DNA of 64,000 nt from Candidatus Latescibacterota bacterium (GTDB lineage Bacteria; Latescibacterota; UBA2968; UBA8231): contig CBDCDC010000002.1 in the NCBI GenBank assembly GCA_965215195.1, positions 416,001-480,000 on the forward strand. Direction: 5' to 3'. The position numbers and the translations under genes are program-made. The notes beneath the pieces were generated by a model. It worked only from the letters and a program-made list of their open reading frames with translations. It had not been told where the DNA came from and ran no database searches. Of this stretch, positions 40,998 to 54,070 are shown piece after piece (the stretch's first letter is position 1; the number at the start of each line of letters is the position of its first letter).

Positions 40998-42398
40998 ATG
41001 CTACCGTCCACATATCCCGCGCACGCCAGCCGCGCAATTCGCCGCTTCTTGCTCATAGGCTCAATTTTCGTCGGCTGTAGTGCCGACGGCCCGGGTCCGG
41101 TCGAGACGGCCAAGCCTAATGCGCATTCGACTTGGGACATCATCCAAACGGAAATTTTCGCCGGCCAATGCGTTAGCTGCCACGCGGCCGGGACCTCGTT
41201 TGGGCGTCAGTCGGGCCTCGTGCTCACCCCGGACGTGGCCTACGAACAGCTCGTGGGTGCTGCTCCGACCAACGCGGCCGCCGCGGCCGACGGGCTGCTG
41301 CGGGTCAGCGACCTCGGGCCGGGCCTGCCCGGCCTGCTCAAGAGCTATTTGTGGGAGAAGATCAACGCGCCCGACCAGCAGCACTTCTACGGCGACCATC
41401 CCTACTACGGGGAGCTAATGCCCTTCGGGGGCGAGTCCCTGACCAACGGCGAGTTGGCTTTTATCCGCGCTTGGATCGAGGCCGGCGCACCAGAGACGGG
41501 CCACGTGGCCGACCCGGCCCTCTTGGAGGACGAGTCGCGCTACGAGGTGCCGGAGTTCAAGCCGCTAGCCGAGCCGGAAAACGGCGTCCAATTGCACTTG
41601 CCGCCTTTTGAGATACAGCCCAACTCCGAGCGCGAAATTTTTGTCGTGCATCCACTGAACAACGAAGACGATGTATTCCTAGAGCGCGTCCAGATCGCCA
41701 TGAAGTCCGGCTCGCACCACTTCCTGCTCTATACATTCCAAGACGACATACCTCCCGAGCGCATGCCGCAACCCTACGAATATCGCGAGTTGCACAATGG
41801 CGCGGGCCAGTACGTCATTGCAACCGTGCTCACGCAGTTTTACCACCTGCCCATCGCCGGCAGCCAATGGCCTTTCTTCGATTTTGCCCTGCCGCCCGGC
41901 GTGGCGATGCGGCTGCCCAAGAACGCACTGCTCGACCTCAACTCGCACTATGTCAATCGCACCAGTCAGCCCACTACCGGCGAGGTCTATACCAACTTGC
42001 ACTTTGCCGACCCGTCTGAGGTTGAGCACGAGGCGCGTCTTTTTTCTTTGAACAACCTCGAGATCTCCCTGCCGGCCGGGGCGGTGACGACCCTAGAAAA
42101 GGATTTTACCTTTTCCGAGCGGACCCACGTTGTGCAGCTCGTTTCGCACGCCCACCAGCTCATGGTAGAATTCCGGGTCGAGATGATCGGAGGAGCGCAC
42201 GACGGCGAGCTCATCTACGTCGCTTACGACTGGGAGCACCCGCCGATCCTGAGATTCGATCCCCCGCTCGTCCTAGAGCGCGGGGAGGGCTTTAGGTTAG
42301 AAGCGACCTATGACAACTGGACCGATCAAGAGGTCAATTTCGGTTTGATGTCAACGGACGAGATGATGATTCTCTTTGGGATTTCCTACGCGGATTAG
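40998..42398 (+). CDS. lipoprotein: cytochrome c motif + copper type II monooxygenase-like domains
   Basis: FVGC lipobox, CVSCH, SHHF, NSHY, HAH, DEM. Confidence 0.75.
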   Translation: MLPSTYPAHASRAIRRFLLIGSIFVGCSADGPGPVETAKPNAHSTWDIIQTEIFAGQCVSCHAAGTSFGRQSGLVLTPDVAYEQLVGAAPTNAAAAADGLLRVSDLGPGLPGLLKSYLWEKINAPDQQHFYGDHPYYGELMPFGGESLTNGELAFIRAWIEAGAPETGHVADPALLEDESRYEVPEFKPLAEPENGVQLHLPPFEIQPNSEREIFVVHPLNNEDDVFLERVQIAMKSGSHHFLLYTFQDDIPPERMPQPYEYRELHNGAGQYVIATVLTQFYHLPIAGSQWPFFDFALPPGVAMRLPKNALLDLNSHYVNRTSQPTTGEVYTNLHFADPSEVEHEARLFSLNNLEISLPAGAVTTLEKDFTFSERTHVVQLVSHAHQLMVEFRVEMIGGAHDGELIYVAYDWEHPPILRFDPPLVLERGEGFRLEATYDNWTDQEVNFGLMSTDEMMILFGISYAD

Positions 42399-42420
42399 CC
42401 GATGGGGGCTGCGACAGGGC

Positions 42421-43074
42421 TTAATACATGTGCGGCTGCACGGCGAGGGCGAGCGACGCTTCAATGTCCCAGATGGCCTTGGTCACCTCTTGGCCAATCA
42501 AGTCCAGCTTGCGCACCTGTTCGATGCGCCCGGTCGCGCGGGCCAGCTCGCGGCTGGCCAAGAGCTTCTCGAAAATTCCGCAGGCGTCCGCCAAGCAGAT
42601 AATGACCACGTCGCGGGGGTCGGGGATCTGATCGCTGAACAGCACCTCCATGATGCGCAGCTTGACCTCTAGCTCGGCCTTGCCATCAATGGCCGGATAG
42701 CGCCGCGAGCGAAACACCCACAGGAAGCGCCCTTCCTCGCGCGCGAGAATGCCCTTCTGCACCAGCCGGCGGAGCGCGCCCTCGCGGATGTCGTTGGCGC
42801 GTGTGGCAGCGCGTTCCAGCCAGTAACGGGTATCGTGCGTCTCGGTCGCCGCGGCAATGTCGCTCAGCATTGGGTCCAGCAGGCTATCTTGCACGGGCGT
42901 ACTATCGACGAGGATCAGCTTGTCGAGGTCGGTGTCGATGCGGTCTTCGAGTGCGAGGTCCATCAGCACCCCGCCGCCCAAGGCGTACCGCACCAGCCGG
43001 TCGGGTACTCGGGCGAAGCTCCCATCTTCATCGTCGAGTAAAAGAAGCATGATCTCTTCGGCGAATCTCAGCAT
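42421..43074 (-). CDS. GPP34/GOLPH3 family protein
   Basis: FAEEIMLLLLDD.G, LMDLALEDRID, LVQKGIL..FLWVF.SRRYP. Confidence 0.85.
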   Translation of the reverse strand: MLRFAEEIMLLLLDDEDGSFARVPDRLVRYALGGGVLMDLALEDRIDTDLDKLILVDSTPVQDSLLDPMLSDIAAATETHDTRYWLERAATRANDIREGALRRLVQKGILAREEGRFLWVFRSRRYPAIDGKAELEVKLRIMEVLFSDQIPDPRDVVIICLADACGIFEKLLASRELARATGRIEQVRKLDLIGQEVTKAIWDIEASLALAVQPHMY

Positions 43075-43140
43075 GGATTACCTCGTTTAATTTTGCGGTA
43101 TCTGACGAAGAATATAGACCGCGAGTGTCGCTGGGCAAGT

Positions 43141-43216
43141 TCCTACGGTTGGTTCCTTCTGGCTGTCTTGGACCAATGAGCACAACCGCACGGCTCCAGG
43201 TCAGGATCCAGCCGAT
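43141..43216 (+). pseudogene. 76-bp relic of a subtype-B FG-GAP paralog
   Basis: Near-identical to 46138ff and 48966-49041 (PTVGSFWLSWTNEHNRTAPG). Confidence 0.85.
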
Positions 43217-43242
43217 CACGTCACGTATAGTAAGGTGTTGTC

Positions 43243-45432
43243 ATGTTGCCCATTCTCATTTGTGCATGGACGGTGCTGTTGAGTAGCCCTGCGGCGGCGA
43301 TCCGGTGGGACTTTGACGACGGGACGACGCAGGGATGGGGTGCCAAGAAACCTATTAGTTCTGGGGGGGATCATCAATTTTACCCGTTGTCTGGGGCAGT
43401 CGAAGCGGGCGTGTGGCGGATTAATGCCTTTCGTACCGACGGTCTCAGTGGCTCTGGGGCCACCTTGATTTCGCCGACGATAGGCTCTGATTCGCACCTT
43501 TTTGACCGGGTGCGGGTGCGGTTCCGCACGATCCATCCCAGTCCTACGACCGGAGCTTTACTCCTCAAATGGACCAATGAGCACAACCTCATGCACCCGG
43601 GTAGTGACCCCCTACCGGGCAGGGGTCGGTTCGCGATTCTCGCAAACGGTGCCTACGGCGAGTTCGTATATACGACCGAATGGCAAGAGTTCGAGTTTTC
43701 GTTGGTTGACATGGAGAAGAATTCCTCCGGGTATTATCCCTTATGGGAGGGGCTATTAGATGACATTCGACTGCTATTTCACTTGGAGGATATGACCGCG
43801 TCTATGATTGACCGGCTGGCTTCGACGAAGGTGGCGGCCTTGGAAGTGGATTGGATTGAGTTGACCGGGGTGGAAGAGGTGTTAGCGGGGGAATTAGCTC
43901 GGCCGCCGGTCTTCGATTTAGGCTTTGCCGGGTCGGGGGTTTTTGCACCGCCGGTATTCTATCCGATTACGCCGGACTTAGGGTTCTTTCGTCTCTTAGG
44001 TGCCGCCCAAGCAGGTGCTTTGACCGACTTAGATGAGGATGGAGACCTCGATCTGTTCTCTTTCTTTTGGGGGCTCGAAGAGAGACGAGGCGGCTGGGTT
44101 ATGGCGCACAACAACGGAGCGGGGGCTTTTGAAACCATACGCATCAAGCCAGTGGAGGGTCTAACGTATGATCCTAGGGTGTGCGTGGGCGATGTGACCG
44201 GCGATGGCCGCGACGAACTGATAATGAGTATCGAAATGTTAGACCTCGGGGTTTGGTCTATCGGAGCAGAGTTCCAGCTAGAAGAACTCGTGCAGCGACC
44301 CAATCGCCGGTTGGTGGATGTGGCCGATTGGGATGGCGACGGGCAGGTGGAGGTGTTTGCTCAACCTGTTGAGGGGGACGACTCTTTTTTGGAGGTCTGG
44401 GACCTCGCCAACGGGGAGTGGATGTTCGCCGAGTGGGCGGTTCCCGATCCGGCTTCCGGGTTGTCGTGGGCACATCAAATCGGCGATTTTACGGGCGATG
44501 GGGTGCTGAACGTGCTGTGGGGACCGCCGGCTTGGTGGGAGCCGGCGCTGTTTGAACAAGTCATCTCGCTTAGAGTGGCGGTCTTAGGGGCTGATCCTGA
44601 ACAGGGGGTGCTCTTTGAAAAGGTCATCCCGTTTTCGCTCCTCGCGGGTCGAGCGGGCGATTTTGACGGCGATGGGCACGTCGATTTACTCGCGGGCTTC
44701 CGAGAGGACTTCCAAGAGCAGCGCAAGGGCTTGGCCGTGTGGAGCAGCCTCCCCGGTGGGTTGAAACAAGAGGTGATCTATAATGAGTATCTGTTCCTGC
44801 GCTCGTCAGTGGTGGTGTGCGATCTGAATGCCGATGGGGTGGATGATTGGGTGTTTGTCGGCGGGGACTATGCGTTGGGTTTTGGCGTGTTCGTCGCATG
44901 GGGCGGCGGCTTGCATCCCACTAAAGCGGTGGAATGGTATCGCTTGTCTGGCGAGGGGGTGGATGTGGGAGCAGGGGGTGTGGCGACGGGCTTGGAGGGG
45001 AATGGCACGGCGGTGCTGCCGGGGGATGTGGATGGCGATGGCGATGTGGACTTGGTGGTGTTGGATCGGGCATTAGGGGGTGTGCATGTACTCAAGAGTC
45101 TGGTGAGTGAGCAGCCGACCGCCGTACAGACGTCGGCGGCAGCGCGGCCGGCGCAACATCGGCTGGGCGACAGCTATCCCAATCCGTTCAATCCGGCGGT
45201 GGTGATCCCCCTTGCGTTGGCGACAGACGCGGCGGAGGTGTCGCTGACGGTGTACGATGTGTTGGGTCGTCGGGTGCGGCAGGTGTGGGCTGGGCCGCTG
45301 GGGGCGGGGAGCCATCGGTTTGTGTGGGATGGCCGCGATGAGGCGGGCAAGGCGGTGGCCGCCGGGGTGTATGTCTATCAGGTCGAAGTGGACGGACAGG
45401 TGGAAGCTAAAAAGACGACCAAGCTGCCGTGA
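43243..45432 (+). CDS. secreted FG-GAP/VCBS repeat protein with YPNPFN/FlgD CTD (copy 1, subtype A)
   Basis: Signal peptide; WDFDDGTTQGW N-domain; repeated DxDGDGxxD; YPNPFNP..WDGRD. Confidence 0.85.
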   Translation: MLPILICAWTVLLSSPAAAIRWDFDDGTTQGWGAKKPISSGGDHQFYPLSGAVEAGVWRINAFRTDGLSGSGATLISPTIGSDSHLFDRVRVRFRTIHPSPTTGALLLKWTNEHNLMHPGSDPLPGRGRFAILANGAYGEFVYTTEWQEFEFSLVDMEKNSSGYYPLWEGLLDDIRLLFHLEDMTASMIDRLASTKVAALEVDWIELTGVEEVLAGELARPPVFDLGFAGSGVFAPPVFYPITPDLGFFRLLGAAQAGALTDLDEDGDLDLFSFFWGLEERRGGWVMAHNNGAGAFETIRIKPVEGLTYDPRVCVGDVTGDGRDELIMSIEMLDLGVWSIGAEFQLEELVQRPNRRLVDVADWDGDGQVEVFAQPVEGDDSFLEVWDLANGEWMFAEWAVPDPASGLSWAHQIGDFTGDGVLNVLWGPPAWWEPALFEQVISLRVAVLGADPEQGVLFEKVIPFSLLAGRAGDFDGDGHVDLLAGFREDFQEQRKGLAVWSSLPGGLKQEVIYNEYLFLRSSVVVCDLNADGVDDWVFVGGDYALGFGVFVAWGGGLHPTKAVEWYRLSGEGVDVGAGGVATGLEGNGTAVLPGDVDGDGDVDLVVLDRALGGVHVLKSLVSEQPTAVQTSAAARPAQHRLGDSYPNPFNPAVVIPLALATDAAEVSLTVYDVLGRRVRQVWAGPLGAGSHRFVWDGRDEAGKAVAAGVYVYQVEVDGQVEAKKTTKLP

Positions 45433-45498
45433 GGAGATGCGCTCTTGATACGAAAAGTCGTATGCCCCCTTGCAACACTTTGTGCGAGCTCTAGGCCG

Positions 45499-45514
45499 TG
45501 GCACGAAATAGGCG
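45499..45514 (+). promoter_or_regulatory. degenerate sigma54 promoter
   Basis: TGGCACGAAATAGGCG; homologous position to 48109. Confidence 0.6.
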
Positions 45515-45523
45515 TACATTCGA

Positions 45524-45653
45524 TTGAAGACGAGGCCGATGCAGAAGAAAGGAGGTGAGGTGATACGAACTCGTACCGGTTGTTTTCCAACACTCACTCC
45601 AGTACCGTAGCGGCAGAAGCCGCGGACGTACTGGGCAACGAAGGAGACGAATT
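45524..45653 (+). other. conserved structured leader (copy 1)
   Basis: Aligns with 48136-48266; contains AAAGGAGGTGA and a CCAGTAC..GTACTGG hairpin. Confidence 0.6.
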
Positions 45654-45698
45654 ATGGACAGTATTCGGGAATTCTTCGCGTCCTCCAGCGGCTTCTGA
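45654..45698 (+). pseudogene. internally deleted copy of the Cys-rich peptide gene (MDSIREFFASSSGF*)
   Basis: Same RBS, first 13 codons and stop context as 48267..48542, with 231 bp missing. Confidence 0.85.
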
Positions 45699-45757
45699 GG
45701 CCTCTATCCGCTATTGAAAAATAGCTATAGGGCAGGAGATGCTCACCTCTTCTCGGC

Positions 45758-45802
45758 GTCAGGGGTTCGGCGTGCATATGGCACCGAGCCCCTGACTTTT
45801 TT
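45758..45802 (+). terminator. intrinsic terminator between the peptide gene and the FG-GAP gene
   Basis: GTCAGGGG..CCCCTGAC stem + TTTTTT; homologs at 48603-48641 and about 50947-50990. Confidence 0.75.
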
Positions 45803-45817
45803 GAAAAGGAATCGGTC

Positions 45818-47941
45818 ATGTTATATCTCGTGTTACATCTCGTGCTTGTTCTAGGCATTGCGCTATGGAGCCGTTCCGCCGAGGCGCTCACGTGGGATTT
45901 CGACGACGGAACGACCCAAGGATGGGCCGCTAAAGAAACGGGTGCCGCGGGTGGTTCGGCTGAAGTCAACCTATTTCTAGGGCAGGTCCAAGACGGCGTG
46001 TGGACGATTGATGTGTCGCCCTCGGTGGCCGGGGAGAAGTATCCCACGCCGAGTGTCCAAGTGATTTCGCCTACCATCGGCTACGAGTCTCGCTTGTTCG
46101 ACCGGATCCGGGTCCGATTTCGCACCGTCCATCATCGTCCTACGGTCGGTTCCTTCTGGCTGTCTTGGACCAATGAGCACAACCGCATGGCTCCAGGTCT
46201 TGACCCAGAGAAACGAAGCAGCAGCCGGTTTTCGCTGCATGGACAAGCTGGCTTTGTCTATACCACCGAGTGGCAGGAAGTGGCGTTGACACTGCCCGTA
46301 TCAGACGGGGAGGTCGCCCCGGGCGACCGGGAGGTCTGGGAGGGGCTTTTACGGGATATTCGGCTGCATTTTAGCTTGGATTGGGGCGAGCGCGATGTGC
46401 CCCGGTCAGCGGCGGAGGTGGTCGGGGGGTTGGAGATTGACTGGATTGAGTTGACCGGCGTGGAAGAGGTATTAGCGGGGGAATTAGCCCCGCCATCGGT
46501 AGAGTATTTCCGCTTTGAGGGAGCCGGACTTTTCGCCCCGCCGATCTTCTCGCCGATTGCGCCGGGGTTAGGGGGCTTTATAGCCGAAGGGGCTGGCGTC
46601 TTGACGGACTTAGATAGAGACGGCGATCTCGACCTATTCTCTACTTGGCGTGATAGAGGATCCGGCTCAAATCCTTTCATAAGCGGCTGGGTCATGGCGC
46701 TCAGTGATGGACGAGGGGTCTTTGAAACGGTGCATACCGAGGCGACCGGATGGGTGACTTACTGGGATGTGCGGAGCGGCGATGTGACCGGCGATGGCCA
46801 AGACGAGATCGTGCTAGCCCACTCAGACATAGCGGTTTGGTCTATCGATCCAGATTTTCAGATTGAGGTACTCACTCAGCTACTTGACCACCAACTCGTA
46901 GGCTTGATAGATTGGGATGGGGACGGTGCGATCGAGTTATTTTCAGACCATATAGTGGCTGGAGGAAGAGCTTTAGAGGTCTGGGAGGTTGAGCAGGGGG
47001 AGTGGACGGGCACCCGGTTAGCGGTGGCCGAAAACCACGCGCCCTCTCGGATGGGCGACTTTACGGGCGATGGGCAATTGGATGTGCTGTGGGTTCCGTT
47101 ATTCGGCCAAGCAAATACGTGGATCGTGGCGGGCTTAGAAGCCGCGCCTAGGGAGGGCAACATCGTCTTTGAATCTGATGCGGGGACCCCTCTTCCGCTT
47201 TTAAGTGCGGGCGATTTTGATGGCGATGGGCAGGCGGACTTACTCACGGCGCTTGAATACAACTCCTATGAACGGCGCAAGGGCTTGCTTCTATGGAGAG
47301 GCCAATCAACGGGTGGCGTGGAGAAGAAGGTGATCTATGATGATCGGCTATTTCTGCGCTCGCCGGTAGTGGTGCGCGACCTCAACGGGGACGGGGTAGA
47401 TGATTGGGCGTTTGTCGGAGGGGATCGCGCCTCGGGGATCGGGGTGTTTGTCGAATGGGGTGGGGGCGCACATCCGGCCAAGGAGGTGGAACGGCATCGT
47501 TTAGTCGGCGATGGGGTACAGGTGCTGCCGGGAGATGTGGATGGCGACGGCGATGTGGACTTGGTCGTGTTAAATCCCCTCTTAGGCGGTGTGCAAGTGT
47601 TGAAGAGTTCGGCGAGGGAACAGATGACCGCGGTGCTGACAGCGGCGGCAGCGCGGCCAGCGCAACATCGGCTCGGCGACAGCTATCCCAATCCGTTCAA
47701 TCCGACGGTGGTGATCCCCCTTGAGTTGGCGACGGATGCGGTGGGGGTGTCGCTGACGGTGTACGACGTGTTGGGTCGTCGGGTGCGGCAGGTGTGGCAG
47801 GGGCCGCTGGGGGCGGGGAGCCATCGGTTTGTGTGGGATGGCCGCGACGCGGCGGGCAAGGCGGTGGCCGCCGGGGTGTATGTCTATCAGGTCGAAGTGG
47901 ACGGACAGGTGGAAGCTAAAAAGACGACCAAGCTGCCGTGA
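45818..47941 (+). CDS. FG-GAP/VCBS + YPNPFN/FlgD CTD protein (copy 2, subtype B)
   Basis: Same architecture as copy 1. Confidence 0.85.
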   Translation: MLYLVLHLVLVLGIALWSRSAEALTWDFDDGTTQGWAAKETGAAGGSAEVNLFLGQVQDGVWTIDVSPSVAGEKYPTPSVQVISPTIGYESRLFDRIRVRFRTVHHRPTVGSFWLSWTNEHNRMAPGLDPEKRSSSRFSLHGQAGFVYTTEWQEVALTLPVSDGEVAPGDREVWEGLLRDIRLHFSLDWGERDVPRSAAEVVGGLEIDWIELTGVEEVLAGELAPPSVEYFRFEGAGLFAPPIFSPIAPGLGGFIAEGAGVLTDLDRDGDLDLFSTWRDRGSGSNPFISGWVMALSDGRGVFETVHTEATGWVTYWDVRSGDVTGDGQDEIVLAHSDIAVWSIDPDFQIEVLTQLLDHQLVGLIDWDGDGAIELFSDHIVAGGRALEVWEVEQGEWTGTRLAVAENHAPSRMGDFTGDGQLDVLWVPLFGQANTWIVAGLEAAPREGNIVFESDAGTPLPLLSAGDFDGDGQADLLTALEYNSYERRKGLLLWRGQSTGGVEKKVIYDDRLFLRSPVVVRDLNGDGVDDWAFVGGDRASGIGVFVEWGGGAHPAKEVERHRLVGDGVQVLPGDVDGDGDVDLVVLNPLLGGVQVLKSSAREQMTAVLTAAAARPAQHRLGDSYPNPFNPTVVIPLELATDAVGVSLTVYDVLGRRVRQVWQGPLGAGSHRFVWDGRDAAGKAVAAGVYVYQVEVDGQVEAKKTTKLP

Positions 47942-47984
47942 GGAATAGTAGGGATAGGTTTGAAACTTTAGGTCATGGAAAAAT

Positions 47985-48020
47985 GGCCCCACGGCGATGC
48001 TTTTTGCCGTGGGGCCTTTT
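47985..48020 (+). terminator. intrinsic terminator
   Basis: GGCCCCACGGC-loop-GCCGTGGGGCC-TTTT. Confidence 0.75.
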
Positions 48021-48057
48021 GTGCGTGGTGATTAGACGCTTTAATCTTTGCGGTAAG

Positions 48058-48085
48058 AATACCCCGCTGCTTGCGGCGGGGTATT
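48058..48085. repeat. palindromic hairpin, REP/IS200-IS605-end-like
   Basis: AATACCCCGCTGC TT GCGGCGGGGTATT. Confidence 0.55.
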
Positions 48086-48108
48086 TTATTTGTATAGGGC
48101 TTAATTTT

Positions 48109-48124
48109 TGGCACGAAACTTGCA
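48109..48124 (+). promoter_or_regulatory. sigma54 promoter (perfect consensus)
   Basis: TGGCACG-AAAC-TTGCA, preceded by an AT-rich tract. Confidence 0.85.
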
Positions 48125-48135
48125 TTATACCGTCA

Positions 48136-48266
48136 TTGAAGGCGAGGCCGATACAGACGAAAGGAGGTGAGGAGGTACGAACTCGTATCGGTTGTTTTCC
48201 AACACTCATTCCAGTACCGTAGCGGCACCGAGCCGTGGACGTACTAGACAACTAAGGAGATGAATT
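48136..48266 (+). other. conserved structured leader (copy 2)
   Basis: GGCCGATAC..GTATCGGTT stem enclosing AAAGGAGGTGA, second hairpin, then the true RBS AAGGAG. Confidence 0.6.
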
Positions 48267-48542
48267 ATGGACAGTATTCGGGAATTCTTCACGTCCTCGA
48301 GCGGCTTGGCTCCGGCTCGGCGGGGGCTGGGGCTCGGGTGGGTCATCAGTGCCCTCGCGGGGATCGCCGTCCTGCTCGGGGCCAGAGGGGCCGAAGCCAA
48401 TCCTTGTCCGACCTCTCGTGATTGCAGTTTCGACGAAGATTGCCCTTCGGCCACACCGATCGAGTGCTGCACAACATGGAAATCGCCAGCTAAGAATGGT
48501 GGATGCACGATCACTGGCTATTCCTGCGTCTGCACCCTCTGA
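48267..48542 (+). CDS. exported 8-Cys peptide precursor (91 aa; predicted 47-aa mature)
   Basis: RBS AAGGAG; RR + hydrophobic h-region + AEA cleavage; mature part C-x5-C-x5-C-x7-CC-x11-C-x6-C-x-C. Confidence 0.8.
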   Translation: MDSIREFFTSSSGLAPARRGLGLGWVISALAGIAVLLGARGAEANPCPTSRDCSFDEDCPSATPIECCTTWKSPAKNGGCTITGYSCVCTL

Positions 48543-48543
48543 G

Positions 48544-48641
48544 GCCCTATCAGCTATTAAGAAATAGCTGTAGGGCAGGAGGTGTTCACCGCTTCTCTGC
48601 GTCAGGGGCTCGGCGTAGGGTGCCGATCCCCTGCCTTTCTT
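48544..48641 (+). terminator. two hairpins after the peptide gene
   Basis: GCCCTA-T-CAGCTATT AAGA AATAGCTG-TAGGGC, and CAGGGG..CCCCTG + pyrimidine tract. Confidence 0.7.
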
Positions 48642-48657
48642 GTAAAGGACATCGGCC

Positions 48658-50826
48658 ATGTTACATCTCGTGCTTCTTCTAGGCATTGCGCTATGGAACC
48701 GTTCCGTCGAGGCGCTCACGTGGCATTTCGACGACGGGACGACGCAAGGATGGGCCGCCAAAGAAGCTGCTGCATGGGGTGGTTCGGCTGAAGTCAACCT
48801 GTTTCCGGGGCAGGTCCAAGACGGCGTGTGGACGATTGATGTGTCACCGTCCGTGGCCGGCAAGAAGTATCCCCAGCCGATTGTCCAAGTGATTTCGCCT
48901 ACCATCGGCTACGATTCGAGCTTGTTCGACCGGGTCCGAGTCCGGCTTCGCACCATCCATCATCGTCCTACGGTCGGTTCCTTTGGGCTATCTTGGACCA
49001 ATGAGCACAACCGCACGGCTCCAGGTCGAGATCCAGCCGATTTGTTTAGCAACCGGTTTTCGCTGATCGGACAAGCCGGCTTCGTCTATACCACCGAATG
49101 GCAGGAAGTGGAGGTAACGCTGCCCGTATCGGACGGAGAGGTCGCCCCGGGCGACCGGGAGGTCTGGGAGGGGCTTTTGAGGGATATTCGGCTGAGTTTT
49201 AGCTTGGATTGGGGCGAGCGCGATATGCCCCGGTCGGCGGCAGAGGTGGTCGGATGGTTGGAGATCGACTGGATCGAGTTGACCGGCGTGGAAGAGGTGT
49301 TAGCGGGGGAATTAGCCCCGCCGTCGGTTGAGTATTTCCGCTTTGAGGGGATCGGGCTTTTTGCCCCGCCGGTCTTCTCTCCTATTATGCCGGAGTTAGG
49401 GCACTTCTTGGTCTCAGGAGGGGATCGGGTTGGCGGCTTGACGGACTTGGATGAGGACGGCGATCTCGACCTGTTCTTCACGTGGAATGGTGTCCGCCAT
49501 GAATCGGCGAATCCCTTCGTAAGCGGCTGGGTCATGGCGCTCAATGATGGGCGAGGGGCCTTTGAAACGGTGCACACCGAGGAAAAGAGCGGAGAGGGGA
49601 TCCAGAATCTGCGCGTCGGCGATTTGACCGGCGATGGCCAAGACGAGATTGCGACTGAAGATAGAAAGAGTTGGGAGATAACGGTCTGGTCTATTGGGCC
49701 GGACCTCCAAATGGAGGTCCTCACGCAGATAAAGGGTCGCTGGCTGGTGGACATGGTGGATTGGGATGGCGACGGCATGGTCGAACTGTTTACAATAGAC
49801 TTTACGTTTACGGTGGAAGAAGGAGCGTTAGAGGTCTGGGAGGCAGGAGCGTTAGAGGTCTGGGAGGTCGAACAGGGGGTGTGGGCGGTCGCACAGGTGG
49901 CGGTGGCCGAAAACCATTGGCCCGCTCGGATAGGCGACTTTACCGGCGATGAGAAGTTGGACGTGCTGTGGGAACCGAGAGACCAGACGGGCACATGGAT
50001 GGTTGCACACTTGGGCGACGAGCCGGAGGCGGGCGACATCGTCTTTGAAGCCGAAGCCGATACGGCGGATATTCTTTTTTACCTTTTACAAGTGGGCGAT
50101 TTTGATGGCGATGGGCAGGTGGACCTGCTTACGCCGCTCGAACACACCCCTTGGGAACTGCTCAAGGGCCTTGCCGTACGAAGCAGCCGATTAGGGGGCG
50201 GTGTAGATGAGACAGTGCTTTATGATGAACGTTTGTTTCTGCGCTCGCCGGTAGTGGTGCGCGACCTGAACGGGGACGGGGTGGACGATTGGGCGTTTGT
50301 CGGCGGAGATCGCGCCTCGGGGATCGGGGTGTTTATCGAATGGGGTGGCGGCGCGCATCCGGCCAAGGCGGTGGAGCGGCATCGCTTGGACGGCGATGGA
50401 GTACAGGTGCTGCCGGGAGATATCGATGGCGACGGCGACCTCGACTTAGTCGTGTTAAATCCCCTCTTAGGCGGTGTGCAAGTGTTGAAGAGTTCGGTGG
50501 GCGAGCAGAGGACCGCGGTGCTGACAGCGGCGGTAGCGCGGCTGGTGCAGCATCGGCTCGGCGACAGCTATCCCAATCCGTTCAATCCGACGGTCGTGCT
50601 GCCCCTTGAGTTGGCGACGGACGCGACGGGGGTGTCGCTGGCCGTGTACGATGTGTTGGGTCGTCGGGTGCGGCAAGTGTGGCAAGGGCCGCTGCGGGCG
50701 GGGAGCCATCGGTTTGTGTGGGATGGCCGCGACGAAGAGGACAAGAGCGTGGCTGCCGGAGTGTACGTCTATCAGGTCGAAGTGGACGGACAGGTGGAAG
50801 CTAAAAAGACGACGAAGCTGCCGTGA
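48658..50826 (+). CDS. FG-GAP/VCBS + YPNPFN/FlgD CTD protein (copy 3, subtype B)
   Basis: Same architecture; internal 24-bp tandem duplication at 49821-49867. Confidence 0.85.
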   Translation: MLHLVLLLGIALWNRSVEALTWHFDDGTTQGWAAKEAAAWGGSAEVNLFPGQVQDGVWTIDVSPSVAGKKYPQPIVQVISPTIGYDSSLFDRVRVRLRTIHHRPTVGSFGLSWTNEHNRTAPGRDPADLFSNRFSLIGQAGFVYTTEWQEVEVTLPVSDGEVAPGDREVWEGLLRDIRLSFSLDWGERDMPRSAAEVVGWLEIDWIELTGVEEVLAGELAPPSVEYFRFEGIGLFAPPVFSPIMPELGHFLVSGGDRVGGLTDLDEDGDLDLFFTWNGVRHESANPFVSGWVMALNDGRGAFETVHTEEKSGEGIQNLRVGDLTGDGQDEIATEDRKSWEITVWSIGPDLQMEVLTQIKGRWLVDMVDWDGDGMVELFTIDFTFTVEEGALEVWEAGALEVWEVEQGVWAVAQVAVAENHWPARIGDFTGDEKLDVLWEPRDQTGTWMVAHLGDEPEAGDIVFEAEADTADILFYLLQVGDFDGDGQVDLLTPLEHTPWELLKGLAVRSSRLGGGVDETVLYDERLFLRSPVVVRDLNGDGVDDWAFVGGDRASGIGVFIEWGGGAHPAKAVERHRLDGDGVQVLPGDIDGDGDLDLVVLNPLLGGVQVLKSSVGEQRTAVLTAAVARLVQHRLGDSYPNPFNPTVVLPLELATDATGVSLAVYDVLGRRVRQVWQGPLRAGSHRFVWDGRDEEDKSVAAGVYVYQVEVDGQVEAKKTTKLP

Positions 50827-51006
50827 GGGATAAGTCCATTCCGTGGGATTCCACGGAAAATCATATGTTCCCTTGCAACGACGGATGAAGCAACGAAGAA
50901 TTGTTTCTGTACCATTTGAGCCAAGGGACCGATTGAAAACCGCTAGGCAGGGTCTCGGCGTGTGCAGCGTGCCGATCCCCTGCCTTTCTTGTAAAGGACA
51001 TCGGCC

Positions 51007-53199
51007 ATGTTATATCTCGCGCTTCTTCTAAGCACTGCGCTATGGAGCCGTTCCGCCGAGGCGATCAAGTGGGATTTTGACGACGGGACGACGCAGGGAT
51101 GGGGAGCCAAAAAATCTTTTAGGTCCGGGGGTGAGCATCAATTTTTCCCGTTGTCTGGGGTAGTCGAAGCGGGCGTGTGGCGGATCAATCTATTTCGCAT
51201 CGACGGTCTCAGTGAAGCAGGGGCCGACTTGATTTCTCCGACGATAGGCTCTGATTCGCACCTGTTCGACCGGGTGCGGGTGCGGTTCCGCTCGGTCCAT
51301 CATAGTCCTACGACCGGAGCCTTGTTCCTCCGATGGACCAATGAGCACAACCTCATGTTCCCGGGTAAGGACCCCCTACTGCAAAGGGGTCGGTTTTCTC
51401 TTCCCGCAAAGGGCTTCTATGGCGAGTGGGTATATACGACCGAATGGCAGGAATTCGAGTTTTCGTTGGTTGACATGGAGAAGAATTACTTTGGGTATTA
51501 TCCCTTATGGGAGGGTCTATTAGATGATATTCGACTGACGTTTGGCTTGGAGGATATGACCGCGTCTATGACCGACCGGCTAGCCTCGACGAAGGTGGCG
51601 GGCTTGGAAGTGGATTGGATTGAGTTGACCGGTGTGGAGGAGGTGTTACAGGGCGAATTACCTCGGCCGCCGGTGTTTGATGTTGGCTTTGCAGGGTCTA
51701 GGATTTTTGCGCCGCCAATATTCTATCCGATCGTGCCGGGATTAGGGTCATTTCGCCTCTTCGGCGACTCCCAAGAAGGTATTTTGACTGACTTAGATGA
51801 GGATGGAGACCTTGATCTGTTCTCATTCTGGTTAGGGGGGGGGGCGGAGGGCTGGGTCATGGCGTGCAACAACGGTGCGGGGGCTTTTGAAACGGTACGC
51901 GTCGAGCCGGAGGAGGATCTAACGCGACCGGAAGATCGTAGGGTGTGCGTCGGCGATGTGACGGGCGATGGCCGCGACGAAATGGTGATGAGTATCAAAA
52001 TGTGGGATCTCGGGGTTTGGTCTATGGGAGCAGAGTTCCAGATGGAGGCCCTCGTGCAGCGGTCCAATCGCCGGTTGGTGGATGTAGCCGATTGGGACGG
52101 CGATGGGCAGATGGAGGTATTTGCCCAACCGGTGGACGAGGACGACTCTTTTTTGGAGGTGTGGGACCTTGTCAACGGGGTATGGACGTTCGCCGAGTGG
52201 GCGGTGCCCGATCCGGCTTCCGGGTTGTCGTGGGCACATCAAATCGGCGATTTTACGGGCGATGGGGGGCTGGACGTGCTGTGGGGGCCGGAGGTTTTTG
52301 TGGGGGGGAGGGAATTTTTTGAACAAGCGATCTCATTTAGAGTGGGGGTCTTAGGGGCTGATCCTGCGCAGGGGGTGCTGTTTGAAGAGGTCATCCCGTT
52401 TTCTCTCCTCGCGGGTCGAGCCGGCGATTTTGATGGCGATGGGCAGGTGGACTTACTCGCGGGCTTCCGGGAGGACCGCTCTGAGCAGCGCAAGGGCCTA
52501 GCCGTGTGGAGCAGCCTCTCTGATGGATTAAAACAAGAGGCGATCTATGATGCGTCTCTGTTTCTACGCTCGTCAGTGGTGGTGTGCGACCTGAATGGCG
52601 ATGGGGTGGATGATTGGGTGTTTGTCGGCGGGGACTATGCGTTGGGTTTTGGCGTGTTCGTCGAATGGGGTGGCGGCTTGCATCCGTCCAAATCGGTGGA
52701 ATGGCATCGCTTGTCTGGTGAGGGAGTGGACGTGGGAGCAGGGGAGGTGGCGACGGGCTTAGAGGGGAATGGCGTCAGGGTGCTTCCTGGGGATGTGGAT
52801 GGCGACGGGGATGTCGATTTGGTGGTGTTGGATCGGGCATTAGGGGGCGTACATGTGCTCAAGAGTTCGGTGAGTGAGCAGCCGACCGCCGTGATGACAG
52901 CGGCGGCAGCGCGGCCAGCGCAACATCGGCTCGGCGACAGCTATCCCAATCCGTTCAATCCGGCTGTAGTGATCCCCCTCGACTTGGCGACGGACGCGGT
53001 GGAGGTGTCGCTGACGGTGTACGATGTGTTGGGTCGTCGGGTGCGGCAGGTGTGGCAAGGGCCGCTGGGGGCGGGGAGTCATCGGTTTGGGTGGGATGGC
53101 CGCGGTGAGGCGGGCAAGGCGGTGGCCGCTGGCGTGTACGTCTATCAGGTCGAAATCGACGGGCGAGTGGAAGCGAAAAAGACGACCAAGCTGCCGTGA
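51007..53199 (+). CDS. FG-GAP/VCBS + YPNPFN/FlgD CTD protein (copy 4, subtype A)
   Basis: Body closest to copy 1; leader hairpin, RBS and signal peptide closest to copy 3. Confidence 0.85.
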   Translation: MLYLALLLSTALWSRSAEAIKWDFDDGTTQGWGAKKSFRSGGEHQFFPLSGVVEAGVWRINLFRIDGLSEAGADLISPTIGSDSHLFDRVRVRFRSVHHSPTTGALFLRWTNEHNLMFPGKDPLLQRGRFSLPAKGFYGEWVYTTEWQEFEFSLVDMEKNYFGYYPLWEGLLDDIRLTFGLEDMTASMTDRLASTKVAGLEVDWIELTGVEEVLQGELPRPPVFDVGFAGSRIFAPPIFYPIVPGLGSFRLFGDSQEGILTDLDEDGDLDLFSFWLGGGAEGWVMACNNGAGAFETVRVEPEEDLTRPEDRRVCVGDVTGDGRDEMVMSIKMWDLGVWSMGAEFQMEALVQRSNRRLVDVADWDGDGQMEVFAQPVDEDDSFLEVWDLVNGVWTFAEWAVPDPASGLSWAHQIGDFTGDGGLDVLWGPEVFVGGREFFEQAISFRVGVLGADPAQGVLFEEVIPFSLLAGRAGDFDGDGQVDLLAGFREDRSEQRKGLAVWSSLSDGLKQEAIYDASLFLRSSVVVCDLNGDGVDDWVFVGGDYALGFGVFVEWGGGLHPSKSVEWHRLSGEGVDVGAGEVATGLEGNGVRVLPGDVDGDGDVDLVVLDRALGGVHVLKSSVSEQPTAVMTAAAARPAQHRLGDSYPNPFNPAVVIPLDLATDAVEVSLTVYDVLGRRVRQVWQGPLGAGSHRFGWDGRGEAGKAVAAGVYVYQVEIDGRVEAKKTTKLP

Positions 53200-53254
53200 G
53201 GCATGGGGCTATCGAGCGGCCTTGGGACGGGTGTCGGCATGGGGCCGAGCGCAT

Positions 53255-54070
53255 TCATCCTACGGGAGAGCCGGTTCCACTGCTGCGGTGACGCAGCCAT
53301 TCCACTGTAAACAGAACCAAGACGGCAAACGCGATGAGAAAGGTCGCCACCGCTAGGATGGTGGGGCTGATTTGCTCGCGGATGCCCGCCCACATCTGTC
53401 GCGGAATAGTCCGCTGCTCCAAGCCGCCCATGAACAGCACCACCACGACCTCGTCGAAGGACGCGGCAAAGGCGAATAACCCGCCAGACGCCACCCCAGG
53501 TGCGATGAGCGGCAACTGCACGCGCCAGAAGCTGTGCAGCGGACCCGCGCCGAGGCTGGCGGCAGCCCGCATCAAGTTCCGGTCGAAGCCCGACAACGTG
53601 GCGGTTACGGTAATCACCACAAACGGGACCCCGAGCACGGCGTGGGCGAGGATTATGCCGAGGTGGGTCTGCGCCAAGCCGAGGCTGGAGTAAAAGAAGA
53701 ACATCCCCACCGCGGCGATGACGACCGGCGTGATCAGCGGCGAGATCAACAGCCCCATCACAGCCCTCCGAGCGGGCATGGCCGAATTCGCCAGTCCGAG
53801 GGCCGCGAGGGTGCCAAGCGAGGTCGCGAGCAGGGTCGCCGAGACGCCGATGACCAAGCTGTTGACCAAGGCGCGAGTCCATGCGCCGTCTGCGATGATG
53901 CTGCGATACCAACGCAGTGAATACGCCTCCGGGTCGAGGCGCAGCATGCCCTCGGTAAACGTGAAATACGGCTCGGCGTTGAAGCTGAGTGGCACGATCA
54001 CCAAAATCGGCGCGACCAAGAAGACAAACGCCGCCGTGCAGAACGCGAGATAGACCCACCGCCCAAACAT
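53255..54070 (-). CDS. polyamine-type ABC permease (PotC-like)
   Basis: SLRWY, SPLITPVVI, RAAASLGA, SFDEVVV. Confidence 0.9.
   Translation of the reverse strand: MFGRWVYLAFCTAAFVFLVAPILVIVPLSFNAEPYFTFTEGMLRLDPEAYSLRWYRSIIADGAWTRALVNSLVIGVSATLLATSLGTLAALGLANSAMPARRAVMGLLISPLITPVVIAAVGMFFFYSSLGLAQTHLGIILAHAVLGVPFVVITVTATLSGFDRNLMRAAASLGAGPLHSFWRVQLPLIAPGVASGGLFAFAASFDEVVVVLFMGGLEQRTIPRQMWAGIREQISPTILAVATFLIAFAVLVLFTVEWLRHRSSGTGSPVG

Follow-up and report, generated by a model that had tools for sequence, protein, structure and literature searches.

A conserved leader on small Cys-rich proteins linked to FG-GAP propeller genes and an A24-like protease in Candidatus Latescibacterota

The window analysed here, i.e. 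the whole stretch of 64,000 nucleotides of Candidatus Latescibacterota DNA, carries on its forward strand a compact cassette in which all the parts described by an initial annotation are present: a sigma-54 site, a 91-aa ORF with 8 Cys, a structured spacer and a gene encoding a 722-aa FG-GAP protein with a T9SS CTD. The -24/-12 promoter element, TGGCACGAAACTTGCA (48109..48124), recurs in paralogs and relatives and is followed by a conserved 5' leader of about 130 nt (48136..48266), in which a Shine-Dalgarno sequence, AAGGAG (48254-48259), precedes the ATG of the small ORF at 48267. This ORF (48267-48542) encodes a leader (residues 1-44, 48267..48398), delimited from four alignments (A1 to A4), an AF2 model and a leader-only HMM, and then a Cys-rich core with 8 Cys (residues 45-91 plus the stop codon, 48399..48542), delimited from its conserved Cys columns and AF2; the 8-Cys sequence initially quoted as the mature part corresponds to the last 47 residues. 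The spacer (48543..48657), predicted by folding to form hairpins at about 48546-48575 and 48603-48633, separates it from the FG-GAP gene (48658..50826), recognized by Pfam, NCBIfam, AF2 and Foldseek. In the window, a sigma-54 transcription unit begins with the small gene and continues into the FG-GAP/CTD gene. Two strong intrinsic-terminator-like hairpins (47985..48087, forward strand), with 13- and 14-pair stems at 47985-48016 and 48056-48087 and T-rich tails, close the preceding FG-GAP gene, and therefore the cassette is a separate transcription unit.

Three paralogous FG-GAP/CTD genes lie nearby on the same strand. The one encoding 707 aa (45818..47941) belongs to the same clade as the genes located 3' of window-type peptides, and follows the sequence that had been reported as a repeat of the cassette scaffold (45499..45817, forward strand). 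This repeat is real, but it is a degraded copy: the -24 half of the promoter and the leader RNA are kept, the -12 half is lost, and a clean 230-nt deletion has taken out the membrane segment together with the Cys-rich core, so that a stub of 14 codons is all that remains of the ORF. The gene encoding 729 aa (43243..45432) has no peptide gene upstream, and the one encoding 730 aa (51007..53199) is preceded by the 3' hairpin of the spacer alone, a hairpin that is also found before the gene at 45818. The window contains no gene encoding a bacterial enhancer-binding protein (bEBP), an A24 protease or a thioredoxin.

The small ORF is a real and conserved gene. The genome harbours 12 paralogs and one remnant, and the leader-only HMM, run against 87,985 ORF pieces of this genome, retrieved exactly the 12 paralogs (E<=5.5e-6) and one marginal 41-aa piece (E 0.0045). 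Searches beyond the genome gave 156 relatives (E<=1) in a protein collection and, in a set of 1.84 billion proteins, 160 clusters at 50% identity (E<=0.001); the family occurs almost only in Candidatus Latescibacterota. The suggestion that standard annotation could miss such a small ORF found no support: gene callers do predict it, as the 156 relatives attest, all of them unnamed among the 120 matches listed.

The combination that had been proposed as a check, a conserved leader followed by variable Cys-rich cores upstream of FG-GAP genes, is found across these relatives. Mean pairwise identity reaches 0.80 for the leader, 0.38 for the core and 0.26 for the non-Cys columns of the core; the Cys columns are conserved across alignments, and 59 of 67 family sequences display 8 Cys. 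The n-region of the leader carries an invariant motif (E6 F7, S10-S12, G13, L14, P16, R18, G20, W25). Gly13 is invariant in all four alignments, diverse members included, and Gly20 in A2 and A4, being absent from some long forms. A hydrophobic helix follows at about residues 21-41 (23-41 in the AF2 model) and ends in a conserved A42-x-A44 that looks like a signal-peptidase-I site, A44 being invariant in the diverse alignment. This conservation of the leader, which the initial annotation had missed, is the most unusual feature of the family. Several unrelated Cys scaffolds stand behind one leader type, and long forms associate the same leader with two Cys modules and a CTD of their own; the leader must therefore permit release into the periplasm. 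The core is predicted by AF2 as a small three-stranded beta-sheet (pLDDT about 80) for which neither Foldseek (best E 0.66) nor a wide structural search (best Z 3.4) gave a clear match.

Elsewhere in the genome, and in relatives, lies a wider maturation and regulation cluster, which had also escaped the initial annotation. It encodes an FMN-binding protein, an A24-like protease, two thioredoxins, a TPR protein, a transglutaminase-like protein, a GT2 and a DUF4159 protein, and its surroundings include a Reg_prop sigma-54 activator. The genome possesses only two A24 genes, both of them paralogs of the cluster type, which score 35.0 and 30.7 bits against Pfam PF01478 (cut-off 26.5). Their catalytic residues D33 and D93, the latter in the GxGD motif (GAGDAK), are shared by all 17 homologs compared, which places them in peptidase family A24; phmmer found no solved relative. 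The thioredoxins (AhpC-TSA/Redoxin, 34.2 and 62.4 bits, cut-off 26) carry CSAC and CPYC motifs and one N-terminal hydrophobic segment each, and are TlpA/ResA-like proteins that score far below the cut-off of the ResA subfamily model itself. In distant genera, the thioredoxin/A24 core is kept, the A24 gene being located directly beside the peptide gene(s) in 5 of 7 A24-centred loci (FMNb-Trx-Trx-A24 in four, Trx-A24 in the fifth), and there these peptides have no FG-GAP gene downstream. Furthermore, the two leader subfamilies adjoin, by coordinates, the two A24 paralog types in several genomes. Among 151 sampled genomes of the phylum, 17 carry the peptide, 24 an A24-like gene and 14 both, ten having an A24-like gene and no peptide detected by the profile used; within the genus, 11 carry both, eight neither, three the peptide only and none the A24-like gene only, a co-occurrence that shared ancestry inflates.

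A24 genes would ordinarily be expected to serve a type IV filament. The T2SSE ATPase (PF00437) and the T2SSF platform (PF00482) gave no match at E<=0.001 in this genome, which is 95.2% complete, in a search whose control profiles were positive in 13 of 14 genomes. Likewise, the prepilin profile N_methyl (PF07963) has no match in the genome, and Flp_Fap (PF04964) none on the peptides nor in the 151 genomes of the phylum. As ATPase, platform and pilins are all absent, the A24 enzymes look as if they served these peptides alone.

The leader could nonetheless be a simple Sec signal peptide whose n-region happens to be unusually well conserved, cut by signal peptidase I alone, the A24 enzymes serving elsewhere. 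Indeed, A42 and A44 are conserved and an ordinary signal peptidase I site could by itself explain export; moreover, the leader lacks Glu5 and any N_methyl or Flp_Fap match, and the CTD-bearing long forms require release from the membrane. However, a leader 80% identical in front of a mature part 38% identical is atypical of ordinary signal peptides, Gly13 is invariant in A1 to A4, the A24 gene adjoins peptide genes across genera, and the genome offers neither another candidate A24 substrate nor the filament machinery. We therefore consider this explanation unlikely; under it, the peptide would still be exported and might still bind the FG-GAP protein.

The 722-aa protein includes a short Sec signal peptide, an N-terminal beta-sandwich (about residues 20-215), a propeller (about 240-615) and a T9SS CTD (about 632-722). 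Pfam detects FG-GAP_3 (65.6 bits), FG-GAP (33.8 bits) and FlgD_ig, and the NCBIfam T9SS type A sorting domain TIGR04183 scores 29.8 bits (cut-off 23), Pfam Por_Secre_tail by itself remaining below its cut-off. In Foldseek searches, the AF2 model (pLDDT 78.4, pTM 0.70) matches galactose oxidase, CRTAC1 and integrin alpha headpieces, with a probability of 1.00 for the last two. Both repeats and fold match thus identify an FG-GAP, integrin-alpha-like beta-propeller. The genome also encodes T9SS machinery, namely SprA and PorU (628.6 bits, cut-off 420), and the CTDs of the FG-GAP protein and of the long forms pass the TIGR04183 cut-off, as is the case for T9SS type A cargo.

Linkage of the two genes is a conserved trait: for 42 of the 52 unique short peptides, an FG-GAP homolog begins at most 600 nt downstream. 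Core type also tracks FG-GAP clade, with eight changes on the tree, whereas 500 shuffles averaged 18.9 and never fell below 14, a contrast that shared ancestry inflates. The complex prediction that had been called for supports an interaction between the Cys-rich core and the FG-GAP protein, with a median ipSAE of 0.83, a value that expresses model confidence rather than measurement and comes from three runs of which one gave 0.00 (0.00, 0.85 and 0.83, vs 0.01 for the best of 3 controls). Run-to-run contact agreement was at least 4% and partner pLDDT at least 53. When the tool was calibrated, 58 of 80 solved complexes passed the mark, as did 2 of 110 mismatched pairs; these counts apply only roughly here because self-made alignments were used. 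In the predicted interface, most of the core lies buried between two domains of the FG-GAP protein. Peptide genes adjoin only a minority of FG-GAP paralogs (28 N-domain matches vs 12 peptides in this genome). Four genomes of the genus with neither detectable peptide nor A24 gene keep FG-GAP genes (10 in G122, five in G132, two in G146 and one in G142); therefore, the peptide is not an obligate subunit.

This last observation would also suit a free secreted effector, whether antimicrobial, signal or host-directed ligand, for which the FG-GAP protein would be a receptor, a carrier or an immunity partner. A conserved leader preceding hypervariable Cys-rich scaffolds is the pattern of toxin and bacteriocin precursors, and the gene exists in many copies per genome. 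However, apart from the partner, no outer-membrane export route is evident for a peptide devoid of CTD, most of the core is buried in the predicted interface, and the peptide type is stably inherited with the FG-GAP clade, so that a free effector appears distinctly doubtful.

The promoter of the cassette recurs well beyond the window. Among 52 unique homologous peptide genes from other genomes, 25 are preceded by a -24/-12 element at -136 to -178, whereas about 0.2 such elements would be expected by chance (arithmetic from the information content of the motif); its recurrence thus exceeds chance. In an alignment of 28 promoter-leader sequences, neither the GG nor the GC dinucleotide varies, and the element precedes 3 of the 13 copies of the genome itself. 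The genome encodes rpoN and 17 bEBPs, only three of which have a Reg_prop sensor, and each of these three adjoins one peptide/FG-GAP island (A, B and C) outside the window. In relatives, a full-length bEBP gene lies directly upstream of the peptide gene in 13 of 33 loci (manual count). Taken with the canonical spacing of GG and GC, rpoN and the Reg_prop bEBPs near the islands identify a sigma-54-dependent promoter. The RNA of the 5' leader (48136..48266) displays weak covariation (1 compensatory pair of 18) and no Rfam match.

Downstream of the small ORF, the segment 48540-48660 folds into several hairpins (MFE -55.5 kcal/mol, z = -3.99, none of 200 shuffles being as stable). The last of them (about 48603-48633) is followed by a T-rich tract, CCTTTCTTGT, and the spacer might possibly act as a terminator or attenuator. 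A strict terminator-like hairpin is present in only 5 of 32 homologous spacers and is therefore not conserved in relatives. The initial proposal that read-through of a terminator makes the FG-GAP protein the rarer partner of an abundant peptide gains no support from these spacers and is at most a possibility.

The two-part, sigma-54-driven, exported system initially proposed for this locus gains support from gene conservation, linkage, promoter and predicted binding. The 91-aa ORF belongs to a conserved and apparently undescribed Latescibacterota system with its own protease and putative disulfide-forming enzymes. The computed family pattern, promoter, linkage, A24 co-occurrence, absence of pilus machinery and predicted binding would fit, with a probability that we put at about 0.55, small proteins that are leader-tagged, disulfide-bonded accessory subunits of T9SS-exported propeller proteins. 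Each cleavage, the oxidative folding, the co-export and the biological role are steps that we infer, and they could proceed as follows. Activation of the sigma-54 promoter would come from a Reg_prop-type enhancer-binding protein whose gene lies next to the main islands, and the precursor would enter the inner membrane through its leader. The A24-family GxGD aspartyl protease of the cluster would cut the cytoplasmic part of the leader after Gly13 or Gly20, and signal peptidase I would cut after Ala44. The two TlpA/ResA-like thioredoxins would form the four disulfides of the core, possibly being re-oxidised by the FMN-binding membrane protein. The folded core would then dock between the N-terminal domain and the propeller of the FG-GAP partner and leave with it through the T9SS, as the accessory subunit of an adhesin- or receptor-like surface complex.

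More speculative, and in our opinion improbable, is the idea of a hitherto undescribed protein-sorting system in which the leader is a prepilin-derived tag on hypervariable Cys-rich proteins, read by an orphan GxGD protease in bacteria that would have lost, or never possessed, a type IV filament machine. Signal peptidase I would free the Cys-rich domain, which would dock in the propeller and exit on the CTD of the partner, while the A24 enzyme, acting like a signal-peptide peptidase, would release the invariant N-terminal fragment of 13-20 residues into the cytoplasm, where it would feed back on the soluble Reg_prop activator driving the very same operons.

Much the same features, i.e. the small size, the hydrophobic helix preceded by a hydrophilic stretch that ends in an invariant Gly, the A24 protease and the propeller protein encoded next to it all, could suggest a novel type IV-like filament, with the small proteins as genuine pilin-like subunits, the FG-GAP protein as a tip adhesin like PilY1 and an assembly machine that has diverged beyond recognition. 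According to two reviews, PilC/PilY1 is indeed a non-pilin partner of pilins located at the tip (PMC10191384, PMC4471445). However, homologs of T2SSE and T2SSF, core to all such machines, are absent, as is Glu5, cleavage at Ala-x-Ala would remove the filament-building helix, and some members are fused to a T9SS CTD, all of which makes pilin-like subunits very improbable. Equally hard to credit is a mainly regulatory uORF, a secretion-monitor leader peptide whose translation or export would set the spacer hairpins and hence FG-GAP expression. The ORF is indeed short, carries an export signal and lies just before the FG-GAP gene, and the last hairpin of the strongly structured spacer abuts the FG-GAP ribosome-binding site. 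However, the Cys pattern is conserved and the core fold confident, several core scaffolds and CTD-fused forms exist, partner binding is predicted, the hairpins are conserved in so few spacers and the peptides of distant genera lie beside A24 with no FG-GAP gene downstream.

The presence of an A24 prepilin peptidase is taken as a sign of a type IV filament machine. The A24 genes described here occur in genomes devoid of such a machine and are tied, across genera, to Cys-rich exported proteins, as well as to private, putatively disulfide-forming enzymes and sigma-54 control. If this association is functional, the known bacterial uses of GxGD proteases would widen, a new N-terminal sorting tag would be defined, and the use of the T9SS by CTD-less proteins riding on a partner would become testable. 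The FG-GAP/peptide pairs have a size that suits direct biochemical and structural tests. The lineage is uncultured and other studies report marine sponges among its habitats; these multi-copy and fast-diversifying pairs may therefore function in surface recognition or in interaction with a host.

As the initial annotation had supposed, the architecture seems to be new: a literature search likewise found no description of a leader-tagged peptide/FG-GAP system. Its parts nevertheless recall several known systems. Class III signal peptides, those of type IV and Flp prepilins, are defined in one review by 6-26 hydrophilic residues that lead up to a conserved Gly (PMC4471445). Like them, the small proteins start with 13-20 hydrophilic residues, among which a Gly is invariant, and continue with a hydrophobic helix of about 20 residues, and an A24-family protease with both catalytic Asp is co-encoded. 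The motif preceding the leader Gly is similar to the end of Flp-type leaders. However, Gly13 is followed by a polar stretch (LAPARRG) instead of the approximately 21 mostly hydrophobic residues, with Glu5 among them, that are expected of class III leaders; after Gly20 the stretch is hydrophobic, yet position +5 is a near-invariant Trp and not Glu. Unlike class III prepilins, the small proteins also carry Ala-x-Ala after the helix and a Cys-rich C-terminal domain, and match neither N_methyl nor Flp_Fap. As the leader departs from class III sequences, it is the gene association that argues for A24 cleavage. Furthermore, no traffic ATPase and platform near pilins and peptidase were found across the genome, whereas assembly ATPase and platform are core parts of all type IV filament machines according to PMC10191384 and PMC4471445. 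The Sulfolobus bindosome, in which sugar-binding proteins carry class III signal peptides (PMC4471445), similarly puts a prepilin-type leader on proteins other than classical pilins, but it is archaeal and, in the same account, its surface placement needs a canonical type IV filament machine (Bas), none being found here.

The FG-GAP proteins and the long peptide forms resemble T9SS type A cargo in carrying the TIGR04183 domain. In contrast, the short peptides have no CTD and would ride on their CTD-bearing partner, an export route for which we know of no described precedent. The FG-GAP protein shares the domain order of galactose oxidase (beta-sandwich, seven-blade propeller, Ig-like domain), and its propeller is like those of integrin alpha and CRTAC1 by Pfam (FG-GAP_3, FG-GAP) and Foldseek, at low TM-scores (0.26-0.34) and 10-15% identity with these three proteins. 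Unlike galactose oxidase and integrins, its predicted partner is a 47-residue disulfide-rich domain, neither oxidase chemistry nor a beta-integrin-like partner being seen.

What the window peptide shares with the WAP four-disulfide-core, knottin and NCR peptides to which it had been compared is its small size and its 8 Cys. Against Pfam it scores no hit at E<=10, a distant member of the family reaches E 0.85 for WAP, and the fold searches gave no clear match, which does not exclude membership of the WAP or knottin families. A conserved leader followed by a hypervariable Cys-rich core is, on the other hand, typical of conopeptide superfamilies and some bacteriocins. Unlike these, the small proteins are bacterial, membrane-inserted, and paired gene by gene with a large partner and an A24-type protease; like these, they combine a leader 80% identical with a core 38% identical, fixed Cys and several scaffolds per leader.

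Each of the features that the initial annotation had named was found in the window sequence: a sigma-54 site (48109-48124), a 91-aa ORF encoding a peptide with eight cysteines (48267-48542), a spacer, and a gene (48658-50826) for a 722-aa FG-GAP protein ending in a T9SS type A C-terminal domain (CTD). Two strong terminator-like hairpins (47985-48016 and 48056-48087) part this cassette from the preceding FG-GAP gene, so that it forms its own transcription unit. The window carries four FG-GAP/CTD paralogs in tandem, starting at 43243, 45818, 48658 and 51007. The second scaffold that had been reported at 45499-45817 is present but is a decayed copy, in which the -12 half of the promoter is gone and the peptide ORF is cut short by a clean 230-nt deletion that took the membrane segment and the Cys-rich core, leaving a 14-codon stub.

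Other traits of this region deserve mention. A 34-base intergenic stretch located before the first FG-GAP gene (43169-43202) is identical to 48994-49027, inside an FG-GAP gene, and shows one mismatch with 46166-46199, 0 matches being expected by chance; it resembles a scar left by recombination or gene conversion within the paralog array. Directly upstream of the array, a gene on the reverse strand (42421-43074) has a strong Pfam match to GPP34 (Golgi phosphoprotein 3; E 1.7e-43), a family best known from eukaryotes. An Rfam scan of 42000-54000 (E<=1) gave a single sub-threshold Pyrobac-1 match within an FG-GAP gene, which was judged to be due to chance. Among sequencing sets, no RNA data turned up that match, the ones listed being four DNA-type contig sets from a single study.

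The small ORF belongs to a real gene family, with intact paralogs in the genome, relatives in databases, a conserved leader and retained core cysteines. The source genome (6.13 Mb, 2 contigs, 95.2% complete) carries 12 intact peptide paralogs and one remnant; an HMM of the leader alone, run against 87,985 ORF pieces of the genome, retrieved exactly the 12 paralogs plus one marginal piece at E 0.0045. A search of a public protein collection gave 156 relatives at E<=1; the 120 listed are all unnamed and free of Pfam domains. A profile run against 1.84 billion cluster representatives matched 160 clusters at E<=0.001, 38 of which also pass E<=1e-10. Near-full-length relatives hand-picked among the 120 matches listed were aligned, first 36 sequences and then 67. 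In both alignments the leader is almost invariant and it is mainly the cysteines that are kept in the core. The contrast between leader and core shows in a pairwise identity of 0.80 for residues 1-44 (leader) versus 0.38 for residues 45-91 (core) and 0.26 for the non-Cys core columns; eight cysteines are present in 59 of the 67 aligned peptides. Among 20 diverse members, Gly13, Ala44 and one cysteine are invariant, and Phe7, Ser10, Ser12, Trp25 and Ala42 are conserved at 90% or more.

One common leader precedes several unrelated Cys scaffolds. The family also includes long forms, often encoded as tandem pairs, in which the same leader as in the short peptides is followed by two tandem Cys-rich modules, a linker and their own T9SS CTD; on contig 2 of this genome, they are found at 2150745-2152334, 2181930-2182748 and 2778140-2779988 (loci L009, L010 and L013). 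Translation revealed an ORF with WD40-like repeats (2152347-2153609, reverse strand) directly upstream of a long-form gene inside island A, one of three peptide/FG-GAP gene clusters (islands A, B and C) located outside the window. Selenocysteine, considered for two peptide matches flagged as containing one TGA, was ruled out, the codon being a natural stop directly after a CxC motif. The ESM Atlas clusters closest to 48267-48539 reach a score of 0.84, which falls short of the level that counts; they consist of unnamed proteins some 90 aa long, mostly labelled Candidatus Poribacteria, a lead hinting that another sponge-associated phylum may have similar small proteins.

A collection of species-representative genomes yielded 33 related loci, all from MAGs, of which 31 are titled Latescibacteria/Latescibacterota and two Gemmatimonadetes/Gemmatimonadota. 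The peptide profile matched 17 of 151 evenly sampled genomes of the phylum, namely 14 of the 22 genomes of the window's genus, the window's own genome, the only genome of a second genus and one of the 20 genomes of a third. Fourteen of the 151 genomes carry both the peptide and a homolog of Peptidase_A24, a prepilin-peptidase-type aspartyl protease. Three have the peptide only (one fragmentary assembly and two with only long or fragment forms), 10 have only A24-like genes, which are distant homologs (27-33% identity), and 124 have neither. Within the window's genus, these four classes comprise 11, three, zero and eight genomes, respectively.

The expected linkage to FG-GAP genes in other genomes was recovered, since a BLAST-based count places an FG-GAP homolog within 600 nt downstream of 42 of the 52 unique short peptides (median distance 152 nt). 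Among the 10 unlinked peptides, four lie at the edge of the fetched DNA, two stand before a second peptide gene that in turn precedes an FG-GAP gene, one is upstream of an FG-GAP gene that an insertion has broken, and three are unexplained. Candidate terminators, as the proposed terminator read-through would require, were found by a strict hairpin-plus-T scan in just 5 of 32 homologous spacers between the two genes, and the read-through reading was set aside. On a FastTree phylogeny of 64 FG-GAP proteins, the peptide core type (33 rows, 9 types) changes eight times, versus a mean of 18.9 and a minimum of 14 over 500 label shuffles; only the peptide-type result was used, because the peptide detector missed some upstream ORFs and the 'None' labels are therefore noisy. 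As shared ancestry contributes to this result, it shows stable co-inheritance of the pairs and not co-evolution. Some arrangements depart from the simple pair. At L013 (contig 2, 2768139-2771788), a reverse-strand 282-aa ORF separates a B-type peptide gene from the N-terminally truncated FG-GAP gene behind it, as if an insertion had split a pair. In two relatives (L036, 7574-8282, and L038, 8001-8822), two tandem short peptide genes of different core types precede a single FG-GAP gene.

Direct contact between the two products was modelled with ESMFold2, with controls, using the core (residues 45-91) and residues 20-632 of the FG-GAP protein. Three runs gave ipSAE values of 0.00, 0.85 and 0.83 (median 0.83), and the highest value among three controls was 0.01; contact agreement between runs was at least 4% and the pLDDT of the partner at least 53. 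In the calibration of the tool, the mark was reached by 58 of 80 solved complexes and 2 of 110 mismatched pairs, counts that apply only roughly here because our own alignments served as input. The predicted interface involves nearly the whole core and, on the partner, both the N-terminal domain (38-44, 71-75, 110, 129-140, 180-186) and the propeller (249-501). Pairing is predicted between the core's last strand and partner residues 38-44 and 496-501; when the partner is modelled by itself, its residues 41-44 show poor order. The modelling thus supports, but does not show, binding of the core to its FG-GAP partner.

The genome encodes rpoN and 17 sigma-54 enhancer-binding proteins. A -24/-12 element lies at -136 to -178 before 25 of the 52 unique peptide genes of the 33 loci (22 in strict form) and before 3 of the 13 peptide copies of this genome; copies devoid of it are mostly second or later in tandem arrays. 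All of the 28 promoter-leader sequences that were aligned keep the GG and the GC. For the same 28 sequences, RNAalifold proposed 18 pairs, just one of them compensatory, in the 5' leader RNA, which makes no case for a structure beyond sequence conservation. Only 3 of the 17 activator genes encode a Reg_prop/Y_Y_Y sensor, and each of the three lies beside one of the three islands on contig 2; no membrane segment is predicted in these Reg_prop activators. By our own tally, a full-length activator gene ends a few hundred bases upstream of the peptide gene in 13 of the 33 loci of relatives. The window itself contains no activator gene; given the close similarity of its promoter and leader RNA to those of two copies in the islands, its cassette is probably served in trans. 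A different conserved 5' leader (L012, 9200-9311; contig 2, about 2365200, 2368040 and 2370890) precedes the B-type peptide genes. It opens with GAAAGGAGGTG, after which comes a short upstream ORF with a GTG start; by eye, this ORF seems to end by overlapping the peptide start codon as ATGA.

In the islands and in most loci of relatives, a set of further genes is clustered in a fixed order. They encode a membrane-anchored FMN_bind/RnfG-like protein, an A24 homolog (372-385 aa), two membrane-anchored TlpA/ResA-like thioredoxins (CSAC and CPYC), a TPR protein, a transglutaminase-like protein, a GT2 glycosyltransferase and a DUF4159 protein. More distant genera keep the thioredoxin-A24-peptide core, often with no adjacent FG-GAP gene; four of their loci have all four maturation genes (for the FMN-binding protein, both thioredoxins and A24) and L051 shows only the second thioredoxin and A24. 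Leaders from these genera follow an unchanged plan (EF..S.SG, then ..P..G...W, a hydrophobic helix and A.A). The A24 gene is 100-250 nt from the peptide gene in five of seven loci centred on it, and both catalytic aspartates are invariant in all 17 homologs. Furthermore, the coordinates show that two leader subfamilies adjoin the two A24 paralog types, with a B-type A24 gene about 2 kb upstream of a B-type peptide gene in this genome and in G127, G145 and G147, and an A-type A24 gene within a few kb of A-type peptide genes in G083, G135, G143, G145 and G149. This association suggests that the A24-type enzyme may cleave the peptide leader.

The genome has no A24 genes other than the two in the clusters. 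No T2SSE-type ATPase, T2SSF platform, N_methyl prepilin or Flp was detected in it with models that matched in control genomes. This 6.1-Mb, 95% complete, diderm-type genome with a T9SS was thus found to contain no type IV filament or T2SS core genes. The end of the hydrophilic part of the leader may resemble Flp-type leaders, a likeness that no sequence model supports; membership of the peptides in the Flp or pilin families was rejected, the PF04964 and PF07963 searches being negative. As SprA and PorU are present (PorU at 628.6 bits for a cut-off of 420) and about 50 further ORFs (50 other matches) carry a T9SS CTD, the CTD is plausibly functional. The long CTD forms must leave the inner membrane, which fits cleavage at the conserved Ala-x-Ala.

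Globally, these data are best accommodated, with a probability only slightly above one half (about 0.55), by a system under sigma-54 control in which an FG-GAP propeller protein and a small disulfide-rich accessory subunit are assembled into surface complexes. Sigma-54 control would lead to production of both proteins; the subunit, tagged by its family-specific leader, would be matured by the dedicated A24-type protease and dedicated oxidoreductases, and would then join the propeller protein in a surface complex. Several data count against a strict version. This genome has 28 FG-GAP N-domain matches versus 12 peptides, so that not all FG-GAP paralogs need a peptide, and four genomes devoid of detectable peptide or A24 genes carry 1-10 FG-GAP genes each; A24 cleavage is proposed from association, and one complex run scored 0.00.

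Full-text searches of the literature on Latescibacteria (prepilin peptidase, FG-GAP, sponge symbiosis) and on the combination of cysteine-rich peptides, prepilin peptidase and oxidoreductases turned up no description of the system; supplements might list such genes. A term search of a paper on sponge-associated Latescibacterota genomes (PMC12993501) found no mention of secretion systems, FG-GAP, integrin, pilin or sigma. Structural comparisons place the components as follows. The AF2 model of the precursor (mean pLDDT 66.6, about 80 across the core) has a helix (23-41) and three strands (50-55, 65-74 and 80-90), with no clear fold match for the core in Foldseek against PDB (best E 0.66) or in a wide structural search (best Z 3.4). 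Neither the family profile nor the A24-like enzyme found a sequence match in the PDB. According to two reviews (PMC4471445 and PMC10191384), all type IV filament machines share a core composed of a class III signal-peptide protein, a prepilin peptidase, a traffic ATPase and a platform protein. The peptide leader is only partly like class III signal peptides as PMC4471445 defines them. The model of the FG-GAP protein (pLDDT 78.4, pTM 0.70) is like galactose oxidase in overall layout (E 1e-12, TM about 0.3) and like CRTAC1 and integrin alpha headpieces in its propeller. The parts are of known kinds; their combination is new.
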